A stretch of DNA of 64,000 nucleotides, taken from an uncultured Gammaproteobacteria bacterium. GTDB lineage: Bacteria > Pseudomonadota > Gammaproteobacteria > SZUA-229. How positions within the stretch are numbered: the first letter of the stretch is position 1; each line of letters starts with the position of its first letter. The translations under genes and the position numbers were made by a program. Of the stretch, positions 2,827 through 61,988 are shown piece after piece. The notes under the pieces are model-generated. The model had not been told where the DNA came from. It made no database searches and saw nothing but the letters and a program-made list of their open reading frames with translations. The DNA lies in the NCBI GenBank assembly GCA_965602855.1, contig CBFCZV010000002.1, forward strand, positions 25,659 through 89,658. Reading direction: 5' to 3'.

Positions 2827-3381
2827 TTATTGAATATAACGACCATTAAAAGAAATATTGGACTCTTCAGTGCATGGTGCAGAAGCGATTGTTATTTTTT
2901 TGCTTAGTAGTAAATTGGTATCGCATTTCCATGTGAAGCCACCAGGGTCATCGTACAGACGCACGATTTTATTGGCTCCATACTTTTCTGTTAGAAAGGC
3001 ATAGATTTCACCGTTATCTATTTTTATGCTTTGTATGTATTTGCCATCAGCCGCCTTTTCAGAGTTCAGGCCCAGATCGGTCATGTCTTCTGGCCAGGTA
3101 TCGTGTTTTCTCTCATATTGAAGGACAGAATTCCTGATTCGTGATAAAGGTCTCTCTAATCGTGTTATTAGATGATGGCGTTCCCGTTGTGCGCGAAGGT
3201 CATTTGATTCTTTCCGTTTTGCTAACCTGAGTTGTTGTACTCGTTCATTATATTGTTGCTGTACTTTTGCTGCTTCATTTTGTTGAGTCTGTTTTTCAAC
3301 GGTTGTTTTTGCGGTGAATTGCATGAAGCCTAAAATGATGAGTAATACGAAGACGACTTTAGCTGATGTTGATCTGAACAT
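2827..3381 (-). CDS. hypothetical secreted protein
   Basis: 184 aa; N-terminal hydrophobic signal segment followed by a Q/R-rich coiled region; no family recognised. Confidence 0.45.
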   Translation of the reverse strand: MFRSTSAKVVFVLLIILGFMQFTAKTTVEKQTQQNEAAKVQQQYNERVQQLRLAKRKESNDLRAQRERHHLITRLERPLSRIRNSVLQYERKHDTWPEDMTDLGLNSEKAADGKYIQSIKIDNGEIYAFLTEKYGANKIVRLYDDPGGFTWKCDTNLLLSKKITIASAPCTEESNISFNGRYIQ

Positions 3382-4341: not shown

Positions 4342-5058
4342 TTATATTCTCTCAAGAAATTTCTGCCCTAATCTTTTTATGCCTTCTGCAATCGCGCCAT
4401 TGGTTGTTTTAAACTGAACAATACCACTTTCAGGCAAAATGGCTTTACTTTCTGCTTCTGCGGTAACAGATTCATTTGATAAAATAATATTATCTTTTAT
4501 ATCGATTAGAGAATATTCAATCTTGGCAAAAACCCTAATAGTTTGGGTTTCCAGGAAAAAATAGGGGATGCCCAGTCCTAAAACTGTTGGCACCGTCCAA
4601 CCATTATGATATCGGTACACATTCGAGAATGAGTTAAGAATCAATACATAATTGGCTCGCTGCCGGGCGCCCATCAAACGAAGAGTAGATAAATTAGGTA
4701 ATGATGAGACAGCAATGATTTCCACGTCAGTGATATTAGAAGTCTTTTCTAAAATTTCTTCTTTAAAGTTGTCGAAAAAATGGGTATCTACCCCTGTTAA
4801 ATTATTGATGATTAATAGTTTTCCATTCTCTGGAATAAGTGCCTTTTTTGTAAGGGTGACGGGAGAAGTTCCAGTGACTTGTCCAGCAAGTAGTTCTTCT
4901 AGTTTTTTTTCAAATTCTGGATCACTCTTTTTTTCCCTGTCTGAAGGAAAAAGCGTAGACGTAATGGTTTGTTTCTCTGGAAAAAATTTTGGTTCTAAAG
5001 CGCCGCAGGCTGAAAGTGTCATTATCAGTATGGGGATTGTTGTGTTAATGCATTTCAT
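4342..5058 (-). CDS. hypothetical lipoprotein
   Basis: 238 aa; signal peptide with lipobox LSAC; AT-rich gene. Confidence 0.5.
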   Translation of the reverse strand: MKCINTTIPILIMTLSACGALEPKFFPEKQTITSTLFPSDREKKSDPEFEKKLEELLAGQVTGTSPVTLTKKALIPENGKLLIINNLTGVDTHFFDNFKEEILEKTSNITDVEIIAVSSLPNLSTLRLMGARQRANYVLILNSFSNVYRYHNGWTVPTVLGLGIPYFFLETQTIRVFAKIEYSLIDIKDNIILSNESVTAEAESKAILPESGIVQFKTTNGAIAEGIKRLGQKFLERI

Positions 5059-5131: not shown

Positions 5132-5905
5132 TTATTGATCCAATCGTCCCATCCAGTCAGCTACCCATCTAATCAACTCATCTTCTTTGCCTTCAAAAAA
5201 ATGATCGGCATTTTTTATGGCTAGCTGGCTGTAGCGTTGGTTGCCGGCTTCTTTTCCTGCTGCCATGCGTTTGTCGTTGTTGTCGAGTACGCTTTTCAGG
5301 TCGTCGCTGCCGTAGATGTCGAGTACGGGGGTGGTGATTTTTTTCAGGCTTTCGGTGTTCATCATGCGGGTATCAGCAAAGAGATCGGGCATACCTATGC
5401 CGACAAATCCCATTACATCTGTTTTGTTTTTTGACAGGTGGTAGGTGCCCATGGTGCTGCCCTGACTGTGGCCAATTAAAATAATTTTTTTATACTCTTC
5501 TTCTTTTAAGTAATTAATAGCGGCGTTGATGCGAGGGCTGACTTCTTCGTAGAGTGGGGCGTACTCGGTGTATTCTGCACCGTTATGCAGAACGGGCATT
5601 TGAATTGATAGTGTGTGCCAGCCATGTTCGGTGAGGCCGATGCGCAGGGGCCTGATGACCTGTTCCATGTCGGGGTGGATGCCGGTGCCGTGCATGATGA
5701 TGGCGGCGCGTTGCTGGTCTTCGGTGGCTTCAGTGAAGATGCTGAGGAATTCATTTTTGCCCTCGTCGAGCATGACTATTTCACCGTCCATTAAATTGTC
5801 TTCAATGGCTTCGGCCCAGCGTTTTTCTTTAGTGAGGTCAGAGGCGTTCACGTTTAGTGTGAAGCTGAATGCGATGAGGGTAATGATGGTTGAGATGGAT
5901 TTCAT
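5132..5905 (-). CDS. alpha/beta hydrolase, secreted
   Basis: 257 aa; signal peptide; GHSQG nucleophile elbow (GxSxG). Confidence 0.7.
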
Positions 5906-7827
5906 GAAGTTGTGCCTGCTATTTGATATTCGAGGAAAACGCCGGCAAATAAAACCAGCCCAAACCAGTTGTTGTTTAAAAATGCTTTAAAACATTGCGC
6001 AGGATCTCTGTGGCGAATTAAGTGCTGTTGCCAGATAGCGAATCCTGTGGCTAGTAGTACGCCAGTGTAGTAAAAAATACCGAGTCCTGCGTTTAGGCCG
6101 ATCATGATCAGGCAGAGTATGAGTGTACCCTGAATGATGCCGATGATGAGTTTATCTGCATCTTCGAAAAGAATAGCCGTGGATTTTACGCCGATTTTTA
6201 AATCATCTTCACGATCGACCATAGCGTACATGGTGTCATAAGCCGTTGCCCATAAAACGGTGGCGATAAATAACAACCAGGCGACCGGGTTGAGTTCATT
6301 GCTCTGTGCGGCGTAAGCCATGGGTACGGCCCAGCCGAAAGCTGCACCCAGATGCACTTGTGGTAAATAGTGGTGGCGCTTCATGAATGGGTAGCTGGCA
6401 GCGAGTATGAGTCCAACTACGGATAATACTATAGTGAGCGGGTTCATCAGTAGCACCAGACCAAAGGCAGCGAGACAAAGTACAGCAAATACGATTAGCG
6501 CTTCTTTCTCGGAGATTTTGCCCGAGGTCAGCGGGCGGTCTTTGGTGCGAGCGACCTTGCAGTCGATGTCTCTGTCGGCGTAATCGTTGATGGCGCAACC
6601 TGCTGAGCGCATCAGGAAAACTCCGGCGACAAAAACCAGCAATACATCGGTGTCGGGCCAGCCACCAGCGGCAATCCATAAGGCCATGAGTGTTGGCCAG
6701 AGCAGTAATAATATTCCAATGGGTTTGTCTAATCGAATGAGCAGCGCGTACTGTTTAGGTTTGTTAACTAGCTGTGATTTTTTTACTCGTTTGTTAACCT
6801 TGTGCAGGCTTAATTTTTGTTTAAAATAAAATATCTTTACCCGCAATGCGAGTTGCTTCCTGATACCACTTATGAATTTATTAGTGCCGGATAAGGCGTT
6901 TTTGATGACGGCTTTAATTCCGGTAAATATTGCTCTGAAGCCTTCATAGATGGATTGAAGCGCTATCTTGATGAAAGTGAAAAAGGCTTTTGCCGTGCTT
7001 ATAAGGCCAGCAAATATTGCCTTGATGCCTTCATAGATAGATTGAAGTACTACCTTGATGAAAGTGAAAAAGGCTCTGGCAGCAGCTTTAATTTCGGCAA
7101 CTAGTACTATTAAGCCTTTATAAATAGATCGAAGTACTGTCTTGATGAATGCGTAAAAAATTTTCGAAGCGGCTTTAATTCTGGCGACTAGTGTTTTAAT
7201 GCCTCTGCTGAGTGCGCGGAGAGCTGCCTTAATGAGTTCGTAAAAAGACTTAGCTACTGTTTTTATTTCAGCAAGTAGTGCATTAATGCCTTTGCCAAGT
7301 ACGTGGAGAACTGTCTTGATGAACTGGTAAATGGCTTTCGCAGCCGATTTTATTCCAGCCAGTATTGCCTTAATGCCTCTGCCGAGTACGCGGAGAGCTG
7401 TTCTGATGAGAGCATAAAAGACTTTTGTGGCGGCACTAACTTTGGCGAATATCGCTCTTGCTATTAAGAATAATAAGAAGAGACCAAACCTGATTAGGGC
7501 AAAAATAACTCTGGTCGTTAATATAATGCCGGCAGTCAGGGAGTAGAGCGCGGCTTTGCTAAAGGCAAAAAAGGCCTTAATACCGGCTTTAATTTTGCCG
7601 GGCAGTGGCTTCAGACTTAAGAGCAGTATGAAGAGAGTCATCTCGCCGATGGCAAAAATAACTTTGATGATTAATATAATTCCGTTGGTCAGTCGGGGTG
7701 GAATTATTGTTGTGAACAGCAGGGAGAGATTCAGCCAGACAAGGTCAAAAAGAACATTGGCGATTAATGTGGTGCCACTAATCAGCCGCTTTATAGCCTG
7801 TAAAAATTTGCTGAAAAAAGAAGTCAT
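5902..7827 (-). CDS. ubiA: 4-hydroxybenzoate polyprenyltransferase (UbiA) fused to a repeat-rich N-terminal extension
   Basis: The C-terminal ~290 aa aligns over its full length with E. coli UbiA ([18 protein letters not shown]...NDYADRxxD...YDTxYAMVDRxDD). The N-terminal ~350 aa is membrane-like plus six 29-aa basic amphipathic repeats. No canonical internal start codon lies between the repeat domain and the UbiA domain. Confidence 0.75.
6880..7460 (-). repeat. in-frame 87-bp tandem repeat array (at least 6 copies) inside the 5' half of ubiA
   Basis: A CTTGATGAA-type anchor recurs at 6967, 7054, 7141, 7228, 7315 and 7402 with an exact 87-nt period; it encodes xAKxFYxFIKTVLRxLxxGIKxLxAxIK units. 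Confidence 0.85.
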
Positions 7828-7958
7828 TTCTTTGTGTAAACCTGATATTGAGGTTTGGTTCGGCTTTTAATTACAGTTTTCGATGACATAGGGTGCTAAT
7901 GATACCTGAGCGACGGGCGGACGTGTACGTGAACAGGAATTTGTAATATTGTAGTGCT

Positions 7959-8486
7959 ATGACTATACGAAAATTTGAGAATTATACACCGGAGATCGCT
8001 GAAACCGCCTATGTTGATGAGGCTGCGGTGGTGACTGGTGATGTGAAAATGGGGGCAGATAGCTCGATTTGGCCAATGTGCTCGGTGCGTGGCGATATTA
8101 ATTCGATCGGCATTGGTGAGCGCACCAATATTCAGGATGGCTGTGTTCTGCACGTCACGCATGACAGTGAATATGCGCCAGGTGGGGCAGCGCTGGATGT
8201 GGGGGATGATGTGACGGTGGGGCACAATGTGGTTTTGCATGCCTGTACGGTTGAAAATGAATGTCTGATCGGCATGGGTGCTGTGGTGCTGGATGGTGTC
8301 GTTGTTCAGGCCGGTGCCATGGTGGGTGCAGGTAGTCTGGTGCCACCGGGTAAGGTGCTGGAAGGCGGCTATCTCTGGTTGGGTTCGCCCGTCAAACGAG
8401 CACGTGAGCTTAGTGAGAAAGAAAAAGCCTTCTTTAAATATTCTGCGCAGCATTATGTGGCGCTTAAAGAGAGGCATAAGTTATAA
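7959..8486 (+). CDS. gamma-class carbonic anhydrase family / hexapeptide-repeat protein (YrdA/PaaY-like)
   Basis: 175 aa left-handed beta-helix hexapeptide repeats with conserved His residues typical of gamma-carbonic-anhydrase-like proteins. Confidence 0.8.
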   Translation: MTIRKFENYTPEIAETAYVDEAAVVTGDVKMGADSSIWPMCSVRGDINSIGIGERTNIQDGCVLHVTHDSEYAPGGAALDVGDDVTVGHNVVLHACTVENECLIGMGAVVLDGVVVQAGAMVGAGSLVPPGKVLEGGYLWLGSPVKRARELSEKEKAFFKYSAQHYVALKERHKL

Positions 8487-16285: not shown

Positions 16286-17077
16286 ATGTCTGTGCAAATT
16301 AAAAAAAGAGCAGCACGAAGCCCGAATTACCCAATACAGCCCTTAGAGTGGGCTGTTAGCAATGCTCTTCAACTCCTTGATAAAGAAGGCTTACATGCTG
16401 TGCCGCCAGACATAGTAGCGCGAAATTTAGGATACAAAAACGCTAGTAATGGCAAGGCTGGTCGAGTTTTAGCGAATTTAAAAGCGTTTGGTGTAATTGA
16501 GAAGGCTTCTTCTGGAAAATTAGCTGTCAGCCAAGATGTGCAGCGTTACAAGTTAGCTCCTACAGATAGCGATAGAAAAAGCTATTTAAAACAATGGCTT
16601 AAAACGCCTCTGCTCTACAGTAAGATCATGGGAAAGTATGAAAACGACTTGCCTTCTGATGCTGTGTTGTTATTCGAGTTAGTAGATGAGCATGGCTTTA
16701 ATGAAGATGCTGCTGAAAAAGCTATAAAGGTTTTTCGTGAATCTATCGATTTTGTTAAAAGAGCTACAAATGGTTTAGATAATGAAAGCAGTGAACAAGT
16801 GCCTGAAGGGGATGATTTTGCAACGGATGCAGGCATAGAAGTGCAGCAAATGACTGCACAGAGCAGCACAACTGCTACAGGTGTGGTGCATGAGCGGACT
16901 AAAAAAGCACCACCGCAAACGAATACTGATAATTTTAGATACCCAATTAGACTTGCTGGTGGGCGAATAGCTTGGATCGAGGTGCCAGTGCCCTTTTATG
17001 AGGCTGATAAAAACAAATTAAAAGCACAAATCGAAATTATAGGTACAGATGATGAAGATGGTGACATTAGTATGTAA
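16286..17077 (+). CDS. hypothetical protein in the AT-rich islet
   Basis: 263 aa; no recognisable motif; low GC compared with the flanks. Confidence 0.45.
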   Translation: MSVQIKKRAARSPNYPIQPLEWAVSNALQLLDKEGLHAVPPDIVARNLGYKNASNGKAGRVLANLKAFGVIEKASSGKLAVSQDVQRYKLAPTDSDRKSYLKQWLKTPLLYSKIMGKYENDLPSDAVLLFELVDEHGFNEDAAEKAIKVFRESIDFVKRATNGLDNESSEQVPEGDDFATDAGIEVQQMTAQSSTTATGVVHERTKKAPPQTNTDNFRYPIRLAGGRIAWIEVPVPFYEADKNKLKAQIEIIGTDDEDGDISM

Positions 17078-18336: not shown

Positions 18337-19080
18337 ATGGATAAAGCAAGAAAACTATACACAAATAAAAAGTGGTATGACTTTTCTGACAAGGTAAAAC
18401 AAAGAGACGGCCATAAATGCCTGCGCTGCAAAAGAGGGGAGTCTGAAGTGGTTCTCCAGGTGCATCATGAAATATATGTAAAAGATAAACCGCCATGGGA
18501 GTATTCGCTGAGTGATTGCAGAACTTTGTGCAAGGGCTGTCATGCAAGAGGGCATAAGCTAATTGCACCTGATCGGGGCTGGACTTTAATTTTGATTGAA
18601 GATCTGGGTGGGGCAGATGGTATTTGTGAACGGGAAAATTGTGGGCATGAGATAAGATATGCGCATGTAACTTATCACCCTGGCTGGGGTTATAAAGTCG
18701 TTGGTAGTACCTGTGTTCAACATCTAACCAAAAAAGACAGATTGCTAAGCAGTCATATTATTACCCTGTATAAAAACATTAGTAAATTTGTTCATGGTTC
18801 AGACTGGGAAAATAGTTTCACTAAAAAAGGAAAGAAATATTTAACCTGTAAATACAAGCATCATTCAATAAGAATATATGGTGAAGAAAATAACTATTCT
18901 TACCAGCTTGTTTTGAAAGAAAAAGGAATACGCTGGCATGAATTTCGAGACATCATTCCTGCCAGGAATATGAGCCTGGAGGAAGTAAAAGAATTGTCTT
19001 ATATCGTGCTGAAAGGAACGGTCAGTAAGAACGAAGAAGAAAAGTCGTTATTGAGAGATGTATACAGAAAAATAAAATAA
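18337..19080 (+). CDS. HNH endonuclease with an uncharacterised C-terminal domain
   Basis: 247 aa; N-terminal HNH motif HKCLRC...VHHEIY...CKGCH; low-GC gene. Confidence 0.7.
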   Translation: MDKARKLYTNKKWYDFSDKVKQRDGHKCLRCKRGESEVVLQVHHEIYVKDKPPWEYSLSDCRTLCKGCHARGHKLIAPDRGWTLILIEDLGGADGICERENCGHEIRYAHVTYHPGWGYKVVGSTCVQHLTKKDRLLSSHIITLYKNISKFVHGSDWENSFTKKGKKYLTCKYKHHSIRIYGEENNYSYQLVLKEKGIRWHEFRDIIPARNMSLEEVKELSYIVLKGTVSKNEEEKSLLRDVYRKIK

Positions 19081-47760: not shown

Positions 47761-48555
47761 TCAGGGTTCAGTGGTTTTATTTGTATTTGCCAATGCAATA
47801 CTTTTCCTGTCCAGTGCCAGTGTTATTGATGCGTTTACCGACATCTCTCTTATCAGAAGAAGAAACGTACATAACCAGCTAACCCCGCCTAGAACAACCA
47901 TTAAATCATGATATGGTTTGAGGTTGCCAATAAATGGCAGAGCTGGAAGATCAACTGTTTTGGTATAGCTTATGTATTCGGTAAACCCAAACGACTGGAT
48001 CAGGTACGGCAACCAGAATGCGAGTATCGATACAAAGACCATGACGCCTAGTAATCTTATGATTAGTGTCGCTGGATAATGGTGTGCAGGAAGCAGTGCA
48101 TTTTTCAGGCCTGAAAAAAGTGCTGTAAATATATTAATGAAAGGCAGAATAAGAAAAGCAGCTAGCAGTGCCAATATGGGATAGCCAATTACAATTGCTC
48201 CAATTCTGTCCTTCATGCCCCTTATTTTGTCTTTGTAATTAATTTTCCAGTAATACTCTGTTGAGGGGTTGATTACACGCATGAGCTGATTGGTTTTGCG
48301 ACTGTATATCAGTGCAATGCTGTGTCCCTGTCGAAACTCAACATTACGATTATATAGTCGAACAGAATCTTCTTTTCCGCTATCAGTTTTGTACCAGATT
48401 ACCTGATCCTGATGGTGGTCTACTCTGGATTGCACGTGATAATTATTATCAGTCGATACGCTAGTGCTCGAGTAATTGCTTTCCTTTTCATCTATCACCG
48501 TGCCTGTAATGACATAGGAATATTCATCAACAACTTTATTGATATTGAATAGCAT
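47761..48555 (-). CDS. hypothetical membrane protein (AT-rich orphan)
   Basis: 264 aa; soluble N-terminal domain plus about four TM helices; a markedly AT-rich gene with AT-rich flanks. Confidence 0.45.
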   Translation of the reverse strand: MLFNINKVVDEYSYVITGTVIDEKESNYSSTSVSTDNNYHVQSRVDHHQDQVIWYKTDSGKEDSVRLYNRNVEFRQGHSIALIYSRKTNQLMRVINPSTEYYWKINYKDKIRGMKDRIGAIVIGYPILALLAAFLILPFINIFTALFSGLKNALLPAHHYPATLIIRLLGVMVFVSILAFWLPYLIQSFGFTEYISYTKTVDLPALPFIGNLKPYHDLMVVLGGVSWLCTFLLLIREMSVNASITLALDRKSIALANTNKTTEP

Positions 48556-48786
48556 TTATTTTATACCTCAACAAAGATTATTATTTTTATAGTGTTTAAG
48601 ACGCTATGTTCGTTTTATGCCAAATAACAGCAATTCTTAATTGCCAGAGCGTAATATGTACAGGTAAAACAAAGTGACATTCTATAAATAACTTTTGAAT
48701 AAATATTGATTCGTGTCATAGATTGTAGTTTTTATGAGCTGTATATGAGTTTTACTGGGTGATCATTTATAGATTACACTAGTGAC

Positions 48787-50232
48787 ATGGGCGAAGAAAT
48801 ACAATATAGCCATTTTAAGAAATCAGATTACCAGCAATTTGTTTCTCGACTTAAAGATGAAACGGCGTTGGTAAGGGACTGGTTCGATAGTGGTCATTTT
48901 TCATCAGCGCCATTGATGGCGGGCTATGAGCTGGAAGCCTGGTTGATTGATAATGAAGGCTCTCCTGCCCCGATTAACAAGGAGTTTCTTGATCTTGCTA
49001 ATAACGCCATGCTCAGTCCTGAGCTGGCCAGATTTAATATCGAACTGAACGTAGAGCCAGAAGTGTTGAGTGGCAGTGTACTGTCCAGTTTTGAGAATAA
49101 GCTGAATACGCTCTGGCAACAGTGTGTGCAAACTGCGCAGTCGCTGGATAGTCAGTTCGTGGGTATTGGTATTCTGCCGACCCTGATGGATGATGACCTT
49201 ATTCTGGAAAATATTTCTTTGCTTGATCGTTATAAGGCGCTCAATGAGCAGGTACTGCGATTGCGTAAGGGTCTGGGTATTAAACTTGATATTAATGGCA
49301 CTGAGCACTTACAGGTCATGCATAAGGATGTGATGCTGGAAGCTGCCGCGACATCGTTGCAGATTCACATACAGGTGCCATTAGGGCAGGCGGTACGTTA
49401 TTACAATGCGTCGATATTGCTGTCGGCACCGATGGTGGCAGTGAGCACCAATTCACCCTGTCTGTTTGGAAAAAAACTGTGGCAGGAAACGCGTATTCCA
49501 GTTTTTGAACAGGCTGTGCCAGCGGGTGGTTATGGTGGTGCGATTAGTGGGCCGGTGCAGCGAGTTGGTTTTGGAACGGGCTATGCGCGTGAGTCTCTGT
49601 CTGAATGCTTTCAGGAAAACCTCGAGCATTTCCCCGTATTGTTGCCCGTGCATTATGAGTCGGATATTGCCGAGTTAAAACATCTGCGTTTACAGAATGG
49701 TACGATCTGGCGATGGAACCGGCCTTTGATTGGTTTTGATGATGATGGAACACCGCATCTGCGTATCGAGCACCGTGTTTGTGCCACTAATCCTTCGATG
49801 CTAGACAACATCGCCAATACGGCTTTCTTCTATGGTCTGGTGCATTACTATGCGAGTGCGGACGTGCCGCCTGAAAACGTCATGCCGTTTACCGATGCCA
49901 GGGATAATTTTTATCGTGCTGCACAGCTTGGTATGAAGCATAAAATTAGCTGGATGGGTGAGCACACAGATTCGCTGCAGAATATTGTTTTAAACAGGTT
50001 GCTCAATGAAGCTGAAACGGGCTTGTATAAACTGGGTATTGAACAATCTGATGTGCAGCGTTATTTGTCAGTTATCCAACAACGTGTCGAGCAGAATAAA
50101 ACAGGGAGTCAGTGGCAACTCGATTTTCTTAATGCACATCAGGATGACAGGAAACTATTGACGTTAAACTATTTGAAGAATCAGGCTTCTGGTCAGCCTG
50201 TGCACGAGTGGGATCTTGAGACGATATGTTAA
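48787..50232 (+). CDS. glutamate-cysteine ligase family 2 (YbdK-like carboxylate-amine ligase), long form
   Basis: 481 aa; GYELEAWLID and RIEHRVCATNPS segments align with the GCS2 conserved blocks. Confidence 0.6.
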   Translation: MGEEIQYSHFKKSDYQQFVSRLKDETALVRDWFDSGHFSSAPLMAGYELEAWLIDNEGSPAPINKEFLDLANNAMLSPELARFNIELNVEPEVLSGSVLSSFENKLNTLWQQCVQTAQSLDSQFVGIGILPTLMDDDLILENISLLDRYKALNEQVLRLRKGLGIKLDINGTEHLQVMHKDVMLEAAATSLQIHIQVPLGQAVRYYNASILLSAPMVAVSTNSPCLFGKKLWQETRIPVFEQAVPAGGYGGAISGPVQRVGFGTGYARESLSECFQENLEHFPVLLPVHYESDIAELKHLRLQNGTIWRWNRPLIGFDDDGTPHLRIEHRVCATNPSMLDNIANTAFFYGLVHYYASADVPPENVMPFTDARDNFYRAAQLGMKHKISWMGEHTDSLQNIVLNRLLNEAETGLYKLGIEQSDVQRYLSVIQQRVEQNKTGSQWQLDFLNAHQDDRKLLTLNYLKNQASGQPVHEWDLETIC

Positions 50233-51233
50233 ATGAGATTAATTTTGTACCTGAAGGTTTTTTAACGGCAACGGTCGAAGAGCTTGAGGATTTATTAAAA
50301 ACGCCAACCTTGATTCATTTGTCGGGTGTTAATCCGCAGCCATTATTTGTTTCAACATTATTGCATGGTAATGAAACCACGGGTTTTTATGCCATTCAGC
50401 GATTGCTGAAAAAACACACCGAGCAGCCTCTGCCAAGAGCAGTATCTATATTCATCGGCAATATCGCAGCAGCAAAAGAAAATCAGCGTCATTTGGATGA
50501 TCAGGATGATTACAATCGTATCTGGCCGGGCAGTCACCACGGTGATTCGTCAGAAAAAGATATGATGCAGTCGGTGACTTATATCATGCGTAAAAAAAAG
50601 CCGTTTGCCAGTATTGATATACACAACAACACGGGCAAGAATCCACATTATGCCTGCATTAATATACTTAACCCACACGGCCTGGTGCTGGCTTCAAAGT
50701 TCAGTGATATAGCGGTTTACTTCACTAGCCCCAAAGGCGTGCAATCGTCGGCATTTTCAGATTTTTGCCCATCAGCGGTACTCGAATGTGGTCAGTCCAG
50801 TGACAGCTCAGGTGTTGATCATGCGCTGGCCTATCTCGAAACTGTTCTTGCTATGGATGACTTGTCGTCACATAACAGCAAAAGCCTGAAGCTATACCAC
50901 ACCGTGGCGCGCGTCACGATTCCAAAAACAGTCACAATGGGTGAGGACATTGGTAGTGGCTGCCATGATATATGTTTAAGTGAGCAACTGGATGATAGGA
51001 ATTTTCATCATATTCAGGCAGGCACTGAATTTGCGACAGCGAATCAGGAAAAAGAAAAACTGGTTATTGTTAGCAGTGAGAGTGATGAGGATGTAACGGA
51101 TGAATATATTGAAATGAAAAATAACCGACTGTTGTTTAAAAAACCGATTACCTTATCAATGTTCACCAGATGTGAAAAAGCAATCAGGCAGGATTGTGTT
51201 TGCTATTTTATGGAAGAGTTACATATTGGTTAA
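50226..51233 (+). CDS. succinylglutamate desuccinylase/aspartoacylase (AstE/AspA) family zinc deacylase
   Basis: 335 aa; LLHGNETTG zinc-binding motif; 7-nt overlap with the upstream ligase. Confidence 0.6.
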   Translation: MLNEINFVPEGFLTATVEELEDLLKTPTLIHLSGVNPQPLFVSTLLHGNETTGFYAIQRLLKKHTEQPLPRAVSIFIGNIAAAKENQRHLDDQDDYNRIWPGSHHGDSSEKDMMQSVTYIMRKKKPFASIDIHNNTGKNPHYACINILNPHGLVLASKFSDIAVYFTSPKGVQSSAFSDFCPSAVLECGQSSDSSGVDHALAYLETVLAMDDLSSHNSKSLKLYHTVARVTIPKTVTMGEDIGSGCHDICLSEQLDDRNFHHIQAGTEFATANQEKEKLVIVSSESDEDVTDEYIEMKNNRLLFKKPITLSMFTRCEKAIRQDCVCYFMEELHIG

Positions 51234-59729: not shown

Positions 59730-60830
59730 GTGTTTATAACTATCATCCTTCTTATTGTCAGTCTGATGCACGGCTATCTGTTCTGGCGTATTGCTTCACT
59801 GCCATGGTTTGCTGTTCCGTTACGACGTAAACAACTCTGGATTGTGGCCTTGTTTATCTGGGTGCTGTTTCTGGTGGGTAGTGTGCTGGGTCACGAAAGC
59901 CAGGCCGTGTTTGTCAGTGTGCTGGAGCGACTGGCGATGGACTGGCTGGGCATGTTGTTTATTGCGGCTACTGTGATGCTGGCTGTTGATTTGCTAACGG
60001 GTTTTGGTTTTTTGGTAAAACATTATCTGATGTGGTTTCGAAGTGCAGGCCTGTTGCTTGCGGGTGTTTTAATTATGCTGGCCATGGTGCAGGGTCTGCG
60101 GTCGCCAGTGGTGGTGAGACATGATGTGATGTTGCCTGAATTGCCGAAAGCGCTAGATGGTATGACCATCGTGGCGCTGTCTGATCTGCATCTCGGTTCA
60201 CAGCTAGGGGCTGACTGGCTGGCAGAGCGGGTGGCACAGGTGCAGGTTTTGCAGCCGGATATCATTGTGTTGTTGGGTGATAATTTTGAGGGCCACGGTG
60301 AGCCTGATTCCGCTTTGCTGCCCGTGTTATCAGAGTTTAAAGCTCCGCTGGGTGTTTATGCCGTGACCGGTAATCATGAGCATTTTAGCGACACGCTTTC
60401 TGCTATTGATCTGACCGAACGTGCAGGCATTCAGTGGTTACGTGATCGTTGCTTGCAGATACACCCCGGCCTGATTCTGGTTGGTGTGGATGATCTGACT
60501 ATGCATCTAAGAAATGGGCAGCAGCAGGATTTTATAACGCCTGTACTCGCTGGATGTCCGGAAGGAGCTACGGTGTTATTTTCTCATTCGCCCCTGCAGG
60601 TTGCACAGGCGGCAGGGGCAGGCGCCGATTTGATGTTGTCCGGGCATACGCACGGTGGCCAGATCTGGCCTTTTGGCTATCTGGTGGAGCAGGTCTATCC
60701 ATATTTGATTGGTCGCCATGAGATTGATGGCATGAGCCTTATTATTAGCCGAGGTGCGGGACTGTGGGGGCCTCGAATGAGGTTGTGGCATCCGGCCGAG
60801 ATTATTCTTATTAAACTGCAAAGCAGATAA
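59730..60830 (+). CDS. membrane-anchored metallophosphoesterase
   Basis: 366 aa; ~4 N-terminal TM helices, then calcineurin-like LSDLHLG...GDNFE...GNHE...GHTH motifs. Confidence 0.8.
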   Translation: MFITIILLIVSLMHGYLFWRIASLPWFAVPLRRKQLWIVALFIWVLFLVGSVLGHESQAVFVSVLERLAMDWLGMLFIAATVMLAVDLLTGFGFLVKHYLMWFRSAGLLLAGVLIMLAMVQGLRSPVVVRHDVMLPELPKALDGMTIVALSDLHLGSQLGADWLAERVAQVQVLQPDIIVLLGDNFEGHGEPDSALLPVLSEFKAPLGVYAVTGNHEHFSDTLSAIDLTERAGIQWLRDRCLQIHPGLILVGVDDLTMHLRNGQQQDFITPVLAGCPEGATVLFSHSPLQVAQAAGAGADLMLSGHTHGGQIWPFGYLVEQVYPYLIGRHEIDGMSLIISRGAGLWGPRMRLWHPAEIILIKLQSR

Positions 60831-60856
60831 AATCATACGAGGACTAAGGAGATTTT

Positions 60857-60931
60857 ATGAGTGCAGAGGCTTGTAACGTACTGAATTGTAGTGATCTGAG
60901 TAGATGCTCATTCCTGAAAATCTATTCTTAG
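60857..60931 (+). CDS. possible Cys-containing 24-aa peptide
   Basis: MSAEACNVLNCSDLSRCSFLKIYS; strong SD TAAGGAG 5 nt upstream; could also be a chance ORF. Confidence 0.2.
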   Translation: MSAEACNVLNCSDLSRCSFLKIYS

Positions 60932-60968
60932 TGTATTATCTGCGCATTCGAATTTTGTAGAAGATAGT

Positions 60969-61988
60969 TTGTATTATTTATTGGGAGATATAAGGGTGAT
61001 TGATTTATTTAGCTTGGTCACAAACAGGTCGTATTTAAAAGGATTGAATGCCTTATTGCTTACTTTTGTACTAATTTCGTGTAGTGATGCTGATGGTGAT
61101 CCTGAGGATATTGTTGGTGTGGCTGCAGCAGGTGAGGCAACGCAAGGAACGGTATATGTTATTGATGCAGAGGGTGTCGAACTTAGTAAACCTCTTAATG
61201 CTGATGGTTATTTTCGATTTGATGTTCGAGGAATGACGGCACCCTTTATGCTGAAATCTGTGGATAGCAATGGGATTGATATTGATTTATTTTCTTATGC
61301 ATTAGAAGCGAACCTAACAGCAAATATAACACCACTAACAAACCTGACTCTGTATATGGCAACCGGCGAGCCTAACCCAAGTGTTTTGTACGATAGCTGG
61401 GCAAGCTCTTTCGTTAATGTAGATGATGCTGATATTAAAAATGCACAGGCTGTGGTGAATGCGAATCTGAGCTTGCAGTACACGGCTTTTAGTTTAGACC
61501 CGCTAACGTATGATTTTTTTGCATCTATTTTTTACACTGATGGTACTAGTTTTGATGGTCTATTAGATGTATTGACTGTGGATCTATTGCCTGTCATTGA
61601 TATTTCTGTAATGGGTATTGCTGATCTACCTGCATTTGATCCTAATGTTGATGTTGCTGGTTTTGATATTGGTGGAGAGAGTGTTGTTGAAATAGGTGCT
61701 TATTCACTGAGTTTAGAAGTTACGGTAGATGGTGAATATTTAAATGCACTGGTGCTTTCCGTTAATTGGCCAGCTGATTCAGTGCCTGTTGTTGGAGGAG
61801 ACACGCAAGTCATTGAAGAAATGTTTATTACTTATCATGCTGTAGTTGGTGATATTGTTATTAATTCTGTGAGCGTAACAGTTGATGAATGGATGCAAAC
61901 GACTGTAGTAGTTGATTCAATAATATCTACTACAGATTATGGTGATTTGAATTATGTTGGTTATTATGTTTTTGTAGAAAATATATAG
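60969..61988 (+). CDS. hypothetical lipoprotein (AT-rich)
   Basis: 339 aa; lipobox LISCS; acidic D/V/T-rich beta-rich sequence; low GC. Confidence 0.5.
   Translation: MYYLLGDIRVIDLFSLVTNRSYLKGLNALLLTFVLISCSDADGDPEDIVGVAAAGEATQGTVYVIDAEGVELSKPLNADGYFRFDVRGMTAPFMLKSVDSNGIDIDLFSYALEANLTANITPLTNLTLYMATGEPNPSVLYDSWASSFVNVDDADIKNAQAVVNANLSLQYTAFSLDPLTYDFFASIFYTDGTSFDGLLDVLTVDLLPVIDISVMGIADLPAFDPNVDVAGFDIGGESVVEIGAYSLSLEVTVDGEYLNALVLSVNWPADSVPVVGGDTQVIEEMFITYHAVVGDIVINSVSVTVDEWMQTTVVVDSIISTTDYGDLNYVGYYVFVENI

Follow-up and report, generated by a model that had tools for sequence, protein, structure and literature searches.

A 358-residue N-terminal extension with cationic 29-residue repeats, a putative membrane-surface helix, on a 4-hydroxybenzoate polyprenyltransferase (UbiA) of an uncultured gammaproteobacterium

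The 4-hydroxybenzoate polyprenyltransferase UbiA catalyzes the first membrane-bound step in ubiquinone synthesis. In a stretch of 64,000 nucleotides (nt) from an uncultured Gammaproteobacteria bacterium of the lineage SZUA-229 (assembly GCA_965602855.1, contig CBFCZV010000002.1, positions 25,659–89,658; hereafter the window), this enzyme is encoded by a complete open reading frame (ORF) at 5902..7827 on the minus strand, which starts with ATG and comprises 641 amino acids (aa) plus the stop codon. The gene encodes a single polypeptide in which a complete UbiA stands behind an extension of 358 aa. No Pfam or NCBIfam family was found for the extension; we see here a known enzyme that carries a family-less domain. 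We propose, with a probability of roughly 0.55, that this tail is a cationic amphipathic helix lying in the plane of the membrane on the cytoplasmic leaflet, and that its properties rather than its sequence are under selection. The protein is divided into the following parts:

7447..7827, minus strand: N-terminal module (aa 1–127) of degenerate, more hydrophobic units in the 29-aa register, defined by register and hydropathy.
6925..7446, minus strand: six canonical 29-aa (87-nt) cationic amphipathic units (aa 128–301), defined by Tandem Repeats Finder, register and hydrophobicity spectrum.
6754..6924, minus strand: partial seventh unit and basic linker (aa 302–358), defined by the alignment of relatives and by charge.
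5905..6753, minus strand: UbiA catalytic domain (aa 359–641), defined by TIGR01474, PF01040 and the Asp-rich motifs.

The C-terminal 283 aa cover the equivalog model of canonical UbiA (TIGR01474, ubiA_proteo; ~290 aa) end to end: aa 359–634 were aligned to model positions 3–281 of 282 with a score of 349.8 bits, compared to a cutoff of 275.45. PF01040 matches aa 375–617 (E = 5e-75). With these two matches the initial annotation, which had been made without database searches and had read the C-terminus as a full-length UbiA, was confirmed on this point. Both Asp-rich motifs of the family, NDxxDxxxD after the second and DxxxD after the sixth transmembrane helix, are found in the translation (NDYADRDID, aa 414–422; DREDD, aa 538–542) and are invariant among the relatives, and prenyl transfer to 4-hydroxybenzoate is predicted for the protein. 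The difference from canonical UbiA lies in the 358 additional N-terminal residues. The distance from the start codon to NDYADR is 413 aa in the window, whereas it is 60–70 aa in most of 80 related genome loci. In the UbiA family, the N-terminus and the Asp-rich motifs with the active site are cytoplasmic, and by homology the window UbiA should have nine transmembrane helices and its N-terminus on the cytoplasmic side (PMC4106721).

Written in rows of 29 residues, the whole extension holds a single register between aa 12 and aa 330. It consists of about four degenerate, more hydrophobic units, followed by six clear units, a partial seventh one and the basic linker. Tandem Repeats Finder returned the 87-nt period over positions 6911–7409 with 76–77% matches; the six anchors reported earlier, from 6967 to 7402 at 87-nt spacing, all lie inside this array. 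Likewise, the earlier count of at least six basic amphipathic units agrees with the six clear units at aa 128–301 and with 35 Lys/Arg versus 5 Asp/Glu residues in aa 128–330 (net charge +30). Each unit divides into 11 + 11 + 7 residues, and every piece contains an IK, with Phe or Tyr at fixed positions. In the N-terminal module, two segments (aa 46–75 and aa 96–134) exhibit transmembrane-like hydropathy, and some residues of this module, for example KPLP at 73–76, are kept in all five relatives. The spacing from NKFIS to DKPIG is constant in all relatives (51 residues). The linker of the window protein is homologous to the linker of N-extended UbiA alleles without repeats, which are described below.

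The hydrophobicity spectrum of aa 128–330 was dominated by a single peak at 99 degrees per residue (360 × 8/29), with an amplitude of 0.47 compared to 0.185 ± 0.019 for shuffled sequences (z = 15.4). As 29 residues make up eight turns, the faces of the helix are aligned from unit to unit. Such an alignment is needed by a continuous helix on a flat surface, but not by separate helices joined by loops. On a per-position wheel of 16 units, a hydrophobic arc spans 112–286 degrees, a Lys/Arg stripe 298–25 degrees, and a face of Ala, Ser, Thr and Gly 37–99 degrees. The hydrophobic moment of 0.5–0.7 at a mean hydrophobicity of 0.2–0.4 was taken as a sequence proxy for lipid-surface binding. Insertions and deletions in the array among the relatives amount to 29, 29, 29, 127 (4 × 29 + 11) and 7 aa, by which the helical phase is roughly preserved. 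AlphaFold2 modeled two units, on the basis of 12 aligned unit pairs, as one unbroken helix with a predicted local distance difference test score (pLDDT) of 70. AlphaFold2, suggested in the initial annotation for residues 1–350, was run on the full protein with a five-sequence alignment; the model was all-helical, but its fold was not usable (pLDDT 39).

The linker contributes a net charge of +10 over aa 331–360, so that array and linker together reach +40, which fits the positive-inside rule. In combination with the cytoplasmic N-terminus of UbiA, this rule would therefore place array and linker at the cytoplasmic face of the membrane, near the active site. Among the physical models considered, a membrane-surface or lipid-binding domain, as had been suggested earlier, is the best supported one, as judged from the properties of the sequence.

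A search with a profile of the extension covered 1.84 billion representative sequences. The best match had an E-value of 1.1e-14; the matches were weak, and all those examined fell on phage tape-measure proteins, in their region of 11-aa "WNGIKS" repeats. In PHROGs, phrog_4200 was matched at 1.9e-9. The tandem, aromatic-marked repeats of tape-measure proteins are built from 11-aa units, sometimes with mixed 11-11-18 periods, and their copy number changes in unit steps (PMC3271669). Both systems have hendecad-based amphipathic helical repeats, a GIK motif and a unit-step change of copy number. In contrast, the window array has a much higher net positive charge and a super-unit of 29 aa (11 + 11 + 7), and the profile matches between the two are weak (1e-14 to 1e-5). 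The N-terminal domains of tape-measure proteins (PF10145, PF20155) were not matched, and a phage origin of the region was rejected from the gene neighborhood, which is a housekeeping one. The resemblance most likely represents a convergent or compositional analogy.

The same matches bear on another structural explanation, according to which the extension would form a coiled-coil or helical-bundle stalk that brings UbiA into oligomers or extends into the cytoplasm, in the manner of the 11-residue tape-measure repeats, and would not lie on the membrane. That tape-measure repeat regions are the sole sequence matches speaks for such a stalk, as do the division of the unit into 11 + 11 + 7 residues next to the mixed periods of tape-measure proteins, the Ala-rich face flanking the hydrophobic one, and the profile search of the PDB, in which the weak matches were designed helical repeat proteins only (E about 6e-4). 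However, with a net charge of +30 per chain and hardly any acidic residues, self-association would be unfavorable unless an anionic partner is present. Furthermore, the N-terminal domains of tape-measure proteins and a phage gene context are absent, a second type of 29-aa repeat (see below) gave no tape-measure match at all, and the E-values are weak for sequences with a biased composition. A stalk is regarded as improbable.

Lipid-surface proteins were compared as well. The models PF01442 and PF07464 as well as those of perilipin and phasin gave no match at E ≤ 1, and Baculo_PEP_C reached 21.8 bits on the window protein, below its cutoff of 38; the label "apolipoprotein-like or phasin-like" in the initial annotation is therefore an analogy and does not denote a family. 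The nearest functional analogy is perilipin 4 with its giant amphipathic helix, where the exact sequence counts for less than length and physico-chemistry (PMC5889406). In common with perilipin 4 and with the 11-mers of apolipoproteins and alpha-synuclein, the window tail would be a very long, repetitive amphipathic helix with 11-mer-based periodicity. Unlike these proteins, it is bacterial, combines a strong positive charge with a broad hydrophobic face, and is linked covalently to an enzyme integral to the membrane. A UbiA-family protein with an extra N-terminal module has a known precedent in the IspH-UbiA "Rosetta stone" fusions (PMC4746011). In those fusions UbiA is joined to a globular enzyme from its own pathway, whereas in the window it is joined to a repeat helix without a family. 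No paper on an amphipathic or repeat N-terminal extension of UbiA was found in the full-text literature, in agreement with the earlier statement that such a protein had not been described.

The in-frame extension of about 350 codons noted earlier on the 5′ side of UbiA has proved to be 358 aa long, in a single open frame and under purifying selection. The ratio of nonsynonymous to synonymous substitution rates (dN/dS) between orthologues is 0.36–0.56 for the extension versus 0.07–0.12 for UbiA; the extension is therefore translated in this frame and is under weaker constraint than UbiA. By our own arithmetic, the chance of an open frame of ~350 codons in DNA with 45% guanine plus cytosine (GC) is roughly 5e-8. 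A search with the extension alone, which covered 5.8 billion proteins, yielded four relatives (P0001–P0004, 480–614 aa), all with UbiA and all beginning with MT(P/S)(F/L)F. Cluster look-ups added P0157 (a second 641-aa variant), P0158 (614 aa), P0160 (487 aa) and P0159 (414 aa), the last being the NCBI entry MCK4706811.1, whose annotated start is the internal Met73. In none of nine related sequences of 480–641 aa does a stop codon separate the extension from UbiA. The ATG at 7827 and the preceding 25 nt are conserved in the five loci that were compared at the DNA level.

All sources are short-read metagenome assemblies, and faulty assembly of the repeat, or read-through into ubiA from a decaying gene upstream, had to be considered. 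At the DNA level the units share only 53–78% identity, and no exact repeat in the array is longer than 22 nt, which makes a collapse in assembly very unlikely. Moreover, assemblies made independently agree on the lengths: 641 aa on three contigs with two sequence variants (the window protein itself on two public contigs and P0157 on another), 614 aa twice and 487 aa twice. The frame is intact and under purifying selection in all relatives. A collapsed-repeat artefact was rejected on these grounds, and an artefact or pseudogene of any kind is extremely improbable. The divergence of the units also contradicts the earlier idea of a hotspot of expansion and contraction, if this is taken to mean slippage; a phase-variable contingency repeat would have near-identical tandem units. 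Copy number does vary, as the check proposed for it revealed (1–6 units among relatives), but the differences are seen from one species-level relative to another and not inside a single assembly.

According to the initial annotation, no canonical start was present at the boundary to UbiA. This holds for ATG and GTG, but not for TTG:

6844..6861, minus strand: candidate internal start, AGGAAG (6861–6856), 9 nt, and TTG (6846–6844, codon 328), present in the window only among the five loci compared.

A UbiA of canonical length could be produced from this start, in which case the upstream part would be a separate product or only occasionally fused. The Shine-Dalgarno-like spacing of AGGAAG and TTG in the window and the NCBI calls of 287–290 aa for relatives, which begin at internal non-ATG starts, are consistent with two products. 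Against this stand the missing stop codon between the two parts and the fact that the TTG is missing in the other four loci. Among the five loci, no ATG, GTG or TTG is conserved between the array and DKPIG, and in P0002 all three are missing from the 70 codons that precede DKPIG. At the level of the protein, conservation extends to the linker residues ahead of the TTG (NKFISGIR..L). A promoter-like site inside the gene was not seen in a promoter and terminator scan, which found none upstream either and is hence uninformative. In P0157, Leu is kept at codon 328, as seen in the protein-level comparison. Two products in place of one fused protein are quite unlikely, while a minor product of the internal start may occur in the window strain. 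Rfam gave no match in the window.

Among the 120 best homologues from a search with the UbiA domain, 104 have at least 336 aa, with typical lengths of 361–386 and 440–461 aa. The shorter versions of 287–290 aa are mostly calls of the NCBI pipeline on contigs where other callers give 392–446 aa. For the pairs P0169 and P0167 (153,425-bp contig), P0172 and P0171 (48,197-bp contig), and P0159 and P0160, the NCBI versions have 289 or 414 aa with internal, partly non-ATG starts; other gene callers and protein-level conservation indicate 392–487 aa. The NCBI pipeline systematically under-calls the N-terminus of ubiA in this clade, and start calls are inconsistent.

The extensions without repeats are cationic (+10 to +29) and helical, match no Pfam or NCBIfam family, and have the linker and the extreme N-terminus in common with the window protein. 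Such non-repeat alleles (P0161, P0171 and P0173; 354–461 aa) share with the window the locus, the synteny, a homologous linker and a UbiA domain of 84–90% identity. They differ in their extension, which is shorter (73–180 aa), less hydrophobic and unrepeated. Compared to them, the middle part is replaced by the 29-mer array in the window allele, and a new ATG is coupled to a leader upstream ORF (uORF).

The extension differs as a whole cassette between near-identical loci, and the 29-mer array marks a class of alleles rather than a lineage. In its UbiA domain, the repeat-bearing P0004 is 97.8% identical to the non-repeat P0173, and just 83–84% identical to the window protein and to P0002. The window UbiA domain itself is closest to that of P0161 (90.2%), a non-repeat allele. 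At the DNA level, the loci of P0003 (L084) and P0173 (L086) are 90–94% identical in both flanks, and between a point close to the start codon and the linker end they share no nucleotide homology. The start region and the linker are the apparent sites of recombination breakpoints. Several extension types were found together in one sample (ERZ25073487, with P0001, P0004 and P0161). Mosaic loci, in which flanks and UbiA core are 90–94% identical and the entire N-terminal extension is non-homologous in its DNA, were also observed in the comparison of the window with L087 (P0161), and the comparison of L083 with L084 indicated a mosaic, too. Conversely, in the pair P0002/P0003 the extension is 89–96% identical, the UbiA core only 66–88% (synonymous divergence 0.165 versus 1.18). 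An origin of the array from the ancestral extension through a change of reading frame was rejected, as tblastn homology was same-frame only and confined to the linker.

The main rival of a membrane helix is a tolerated, near-neutral tail: an ancestral N-terminal helix would have been amplified by unequal recombination, harmless to UbiA and functionless. A copy number of ~1 to 6 among close relatives, repeat-free alleles on nearly identical UbiA domains, a dN/dS four to five times that of UbiA and the lack of a match to any known domain are in line with this explanation. However, dN/dS is clearly below 1 over 160–330 codons, amphipathic phase and charge are maintained (z 10–15), and the indel sizes preserve the phase of the helix. 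Some N-terminal extension is present in the 104 of the 120 closest homologues, and a second lineage shows the same 29-aa period with an unrelated sequence. In view of both sides, we regard a functionless tail as possible but rather doubtful.

The second lineage (clade 2) is represented by the locus L045 (JAENIZ010000006.1, 3542–5347, 601 aa) and by P0155 (MBI4005445.1, 446 aa), with an extension of different 29-aa/87-nt units (WIAVQIKRFAQGCLAFSKILWHAFIKFCG). Similar to the window array, these extensions have the peak at 99 degrees (z 7.6–12.9), a net charge of +27 to +35 and a variable copy number. In contrast, their units are rich in Trp, Cys and Phe. The UbiA domain of clade 2 is 61% identical to that of the window, ranks 63rd of 83 window neighbors and is located elsewhere in the neighbor-joining tree; ubiC lies directly upstream and overlaps the ubiA start by 16 nt. 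A test for homology between the two types of repeat was negative (hhalign probability 0.6%, BLASTP E = 1.7), and the hidden Markov model (HMM) of either type matches its own clade only. The two types represent either convergence on the 29-residue period or a kinship too old to be detected. A bolder idea, which we put forward tentatively and consider unlikely, is that each of the two lineages built a giant cationic amphipathic helix with a 29/8 period as an in-plane membrane "raft" on the cytoplasmic N-terminus of UbiA, and that the length of this helix, given by the copy number and passed between strains as a cassette, tunes the capture of polyprenyl diphosphate or the hand-over of product to the downstream enzymes. 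If true, this would be a bacterial, enzyme-attached counterpart of the giant helix of perilipin 4.

For the in-plane membrane helix favored here, the following picture is proposed. The extension would be almost wholly alpha-helical, including a cationic amphipathic helix of ~200 residues (~30 nm) with its faces in phase across the units. The tail would run along the cytoplasmic leaflet, within its plane, with the hydrophobic face buried and the lysines snorkeling to the headgroups of anionic lipids; the N-terminal units, which are more hydrophobic, may be situated deeper in the membrane or form a hairpin. Selection would act on helicity, phase and charge instead of the exact sequence, and selection at the level of properties would therefore permit fast divergence, gain and loss of units, and different extension types in near-identical loci. 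The cationic, helical character of the non-repeat extensions and the clade-2 repeat, with its equal period and unrelated sequence, argue for this kind of selection. More speculatively, the tail may enlarge the membrane footprint of UbiA, the copy number tuning the size of this footprint. Possible, equally speculative roles would be to hold UbiA in regions of anionic lipids, to concentrate the anionic polyprenyl diphosphate electrostatically, or to aid the hand-over of the product.

Several points weigh against this picture. Membrane binding is deduced from sequence properties, and the full-length AlphaFold2 model has the low pLDDT given above. The transmembrane-like hydropathy of the two N-terminal segments leaves several topologies for aa 1–127. 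P0003 and P0004 have only ~1 unit, and P0173 has a non-repeat extension on a UbiA domain nearly identical to that of P0004; the long array is therefore dispensable. The dN/dS of the extension is relaxed relative to that of UbiA. The TTG with its Shine-Dalgarno-like motif at codon 328 could also give a short UbiA in the window. Finally, the roles in substrate concentration and localization are speculation.

The immediate surroundings of the gene contain three further features:

7824..7889, minus strand: leader uORF of 21 codons, the TGA stop of which overlaps the main ATG (ATGA), identified by comparison of allele start regions.
5132..5905, minus strand: DUF3530 gene, the start of which overlaps the ubiA stop by 4 nt (ATGA), syntenic in relatives.
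7959..8486, plus strand: divergent hexapeptide-repeat (gamma-carbonic-anhydrase-like) gene, at the place where most Gammaproteobacteria have ubiC.

The ATG of the uORF is positionally orthologous to the ubiA start codon of the non-repeat alleles, and the main ubiA ATG has no good Shine-Dalgarno motif. The uORF is open in all loci of the 29-mer type, with 21 codons in the window and in L082 (1362–1427) and 65 codons in L083 (5807–6004) and L084 (4424–4621); the shorter form equals the longer one minus 44 in-frame codons. A conserved uORF peptide was rejected, as the proportion of nonsynonymous differences (pN 0.18) exceeds that of synonymous ones (pS 0.07) and only the openness and the ATGA overlap are conserved. 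If the uORF matters, it would act via translational coupling. The DUF3530 gene is predicted to be translationally coupled to ubiA by its own ATGA overlap. Its product is alpha/beta-hydrolase-like with a signal-peptide-like N-terminus, and the synteny of the gene extends over the window clade, L002, L004 and L071. The divergent hexapeptide-repeat gene, not ubiC, is found upstream in the non-repeat and Thiotrichaceae-type relatives, too. A 193-aa ORF antisense to it (7896–8477, minus strand), rich in His, Thr and Pro, is most likely a spurious shadow ORF.

A different N-terminal extension of 55–100 aa was observed in L002, L004–L007, L009, L010 and L071, which are metagenome-assembled genomes (MAGs) of Thiotrichaceae and other Gammaproteobacteria. 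It has an H-P-x-x-D motif (HPLLDKLE) that is invariant among them, ~100 aa ahead of the UbiA core, and is absent in the clade of the window; no Pfam or NCBIfam family was matched by this extension. The nearest named relatives in the genome contig scan were Thiotrichaceae MAGs with 67–76% UbiA identity; the species of the window has no entry there. The metagenome contig scan with the extension profile gave no match.

The neighbors of ubiA include bioB, bioF, the DUF3530 gene, a gene for a GGDEF/EAL protein and housekeeping genes. The housekeeping content of the window comprises aroE, hemB, hemF, tsaC, topA, smg, dprA, def, fmt, rsmB, trkA, trkH and tatC, and HemF, an oxygen-dependent enzyme, hints at aerobic or microaerobic life. 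Nearly all 1-kb bins of positions 1–64000 have a positive GC skew, and the cumulative skew climbs steadily to 7.5; the window is probably located on one replichore with the plus strand leading and ubiA on the lagging strand. Several ORFs of 180–480 aa with no Pfam or NCBIfam match at the thresholds applied are located at 4342–5058 (minus strand; with a lipoprotein-like N-terminus), 2827–3381 (minus), 16286–17077 (plus), 18337–19080 (plus), 47761–51233 and 59730–61988.

Taken together, a clade of uncultured Gammaproteobacteria bears an unannotated, cationic helical N-terminal domain on UbiA, which is trimmed off by the NCBI pipeline, and in one allele class this domain is expanded to a predicted helix of ~30 nm. 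The wider question to which it belongs is how the very hydrophobic substrate and product of UbiA are delivered and removed. If the tail binds the membrane, it would be a rare bacterial giant amphipathic helix and a case of convergence on the 29/8 helical period. Its alleles would then provide a natural, copy-number-graded system for the effects of helix length and charge on the placement or activity of a membrane enzyme.

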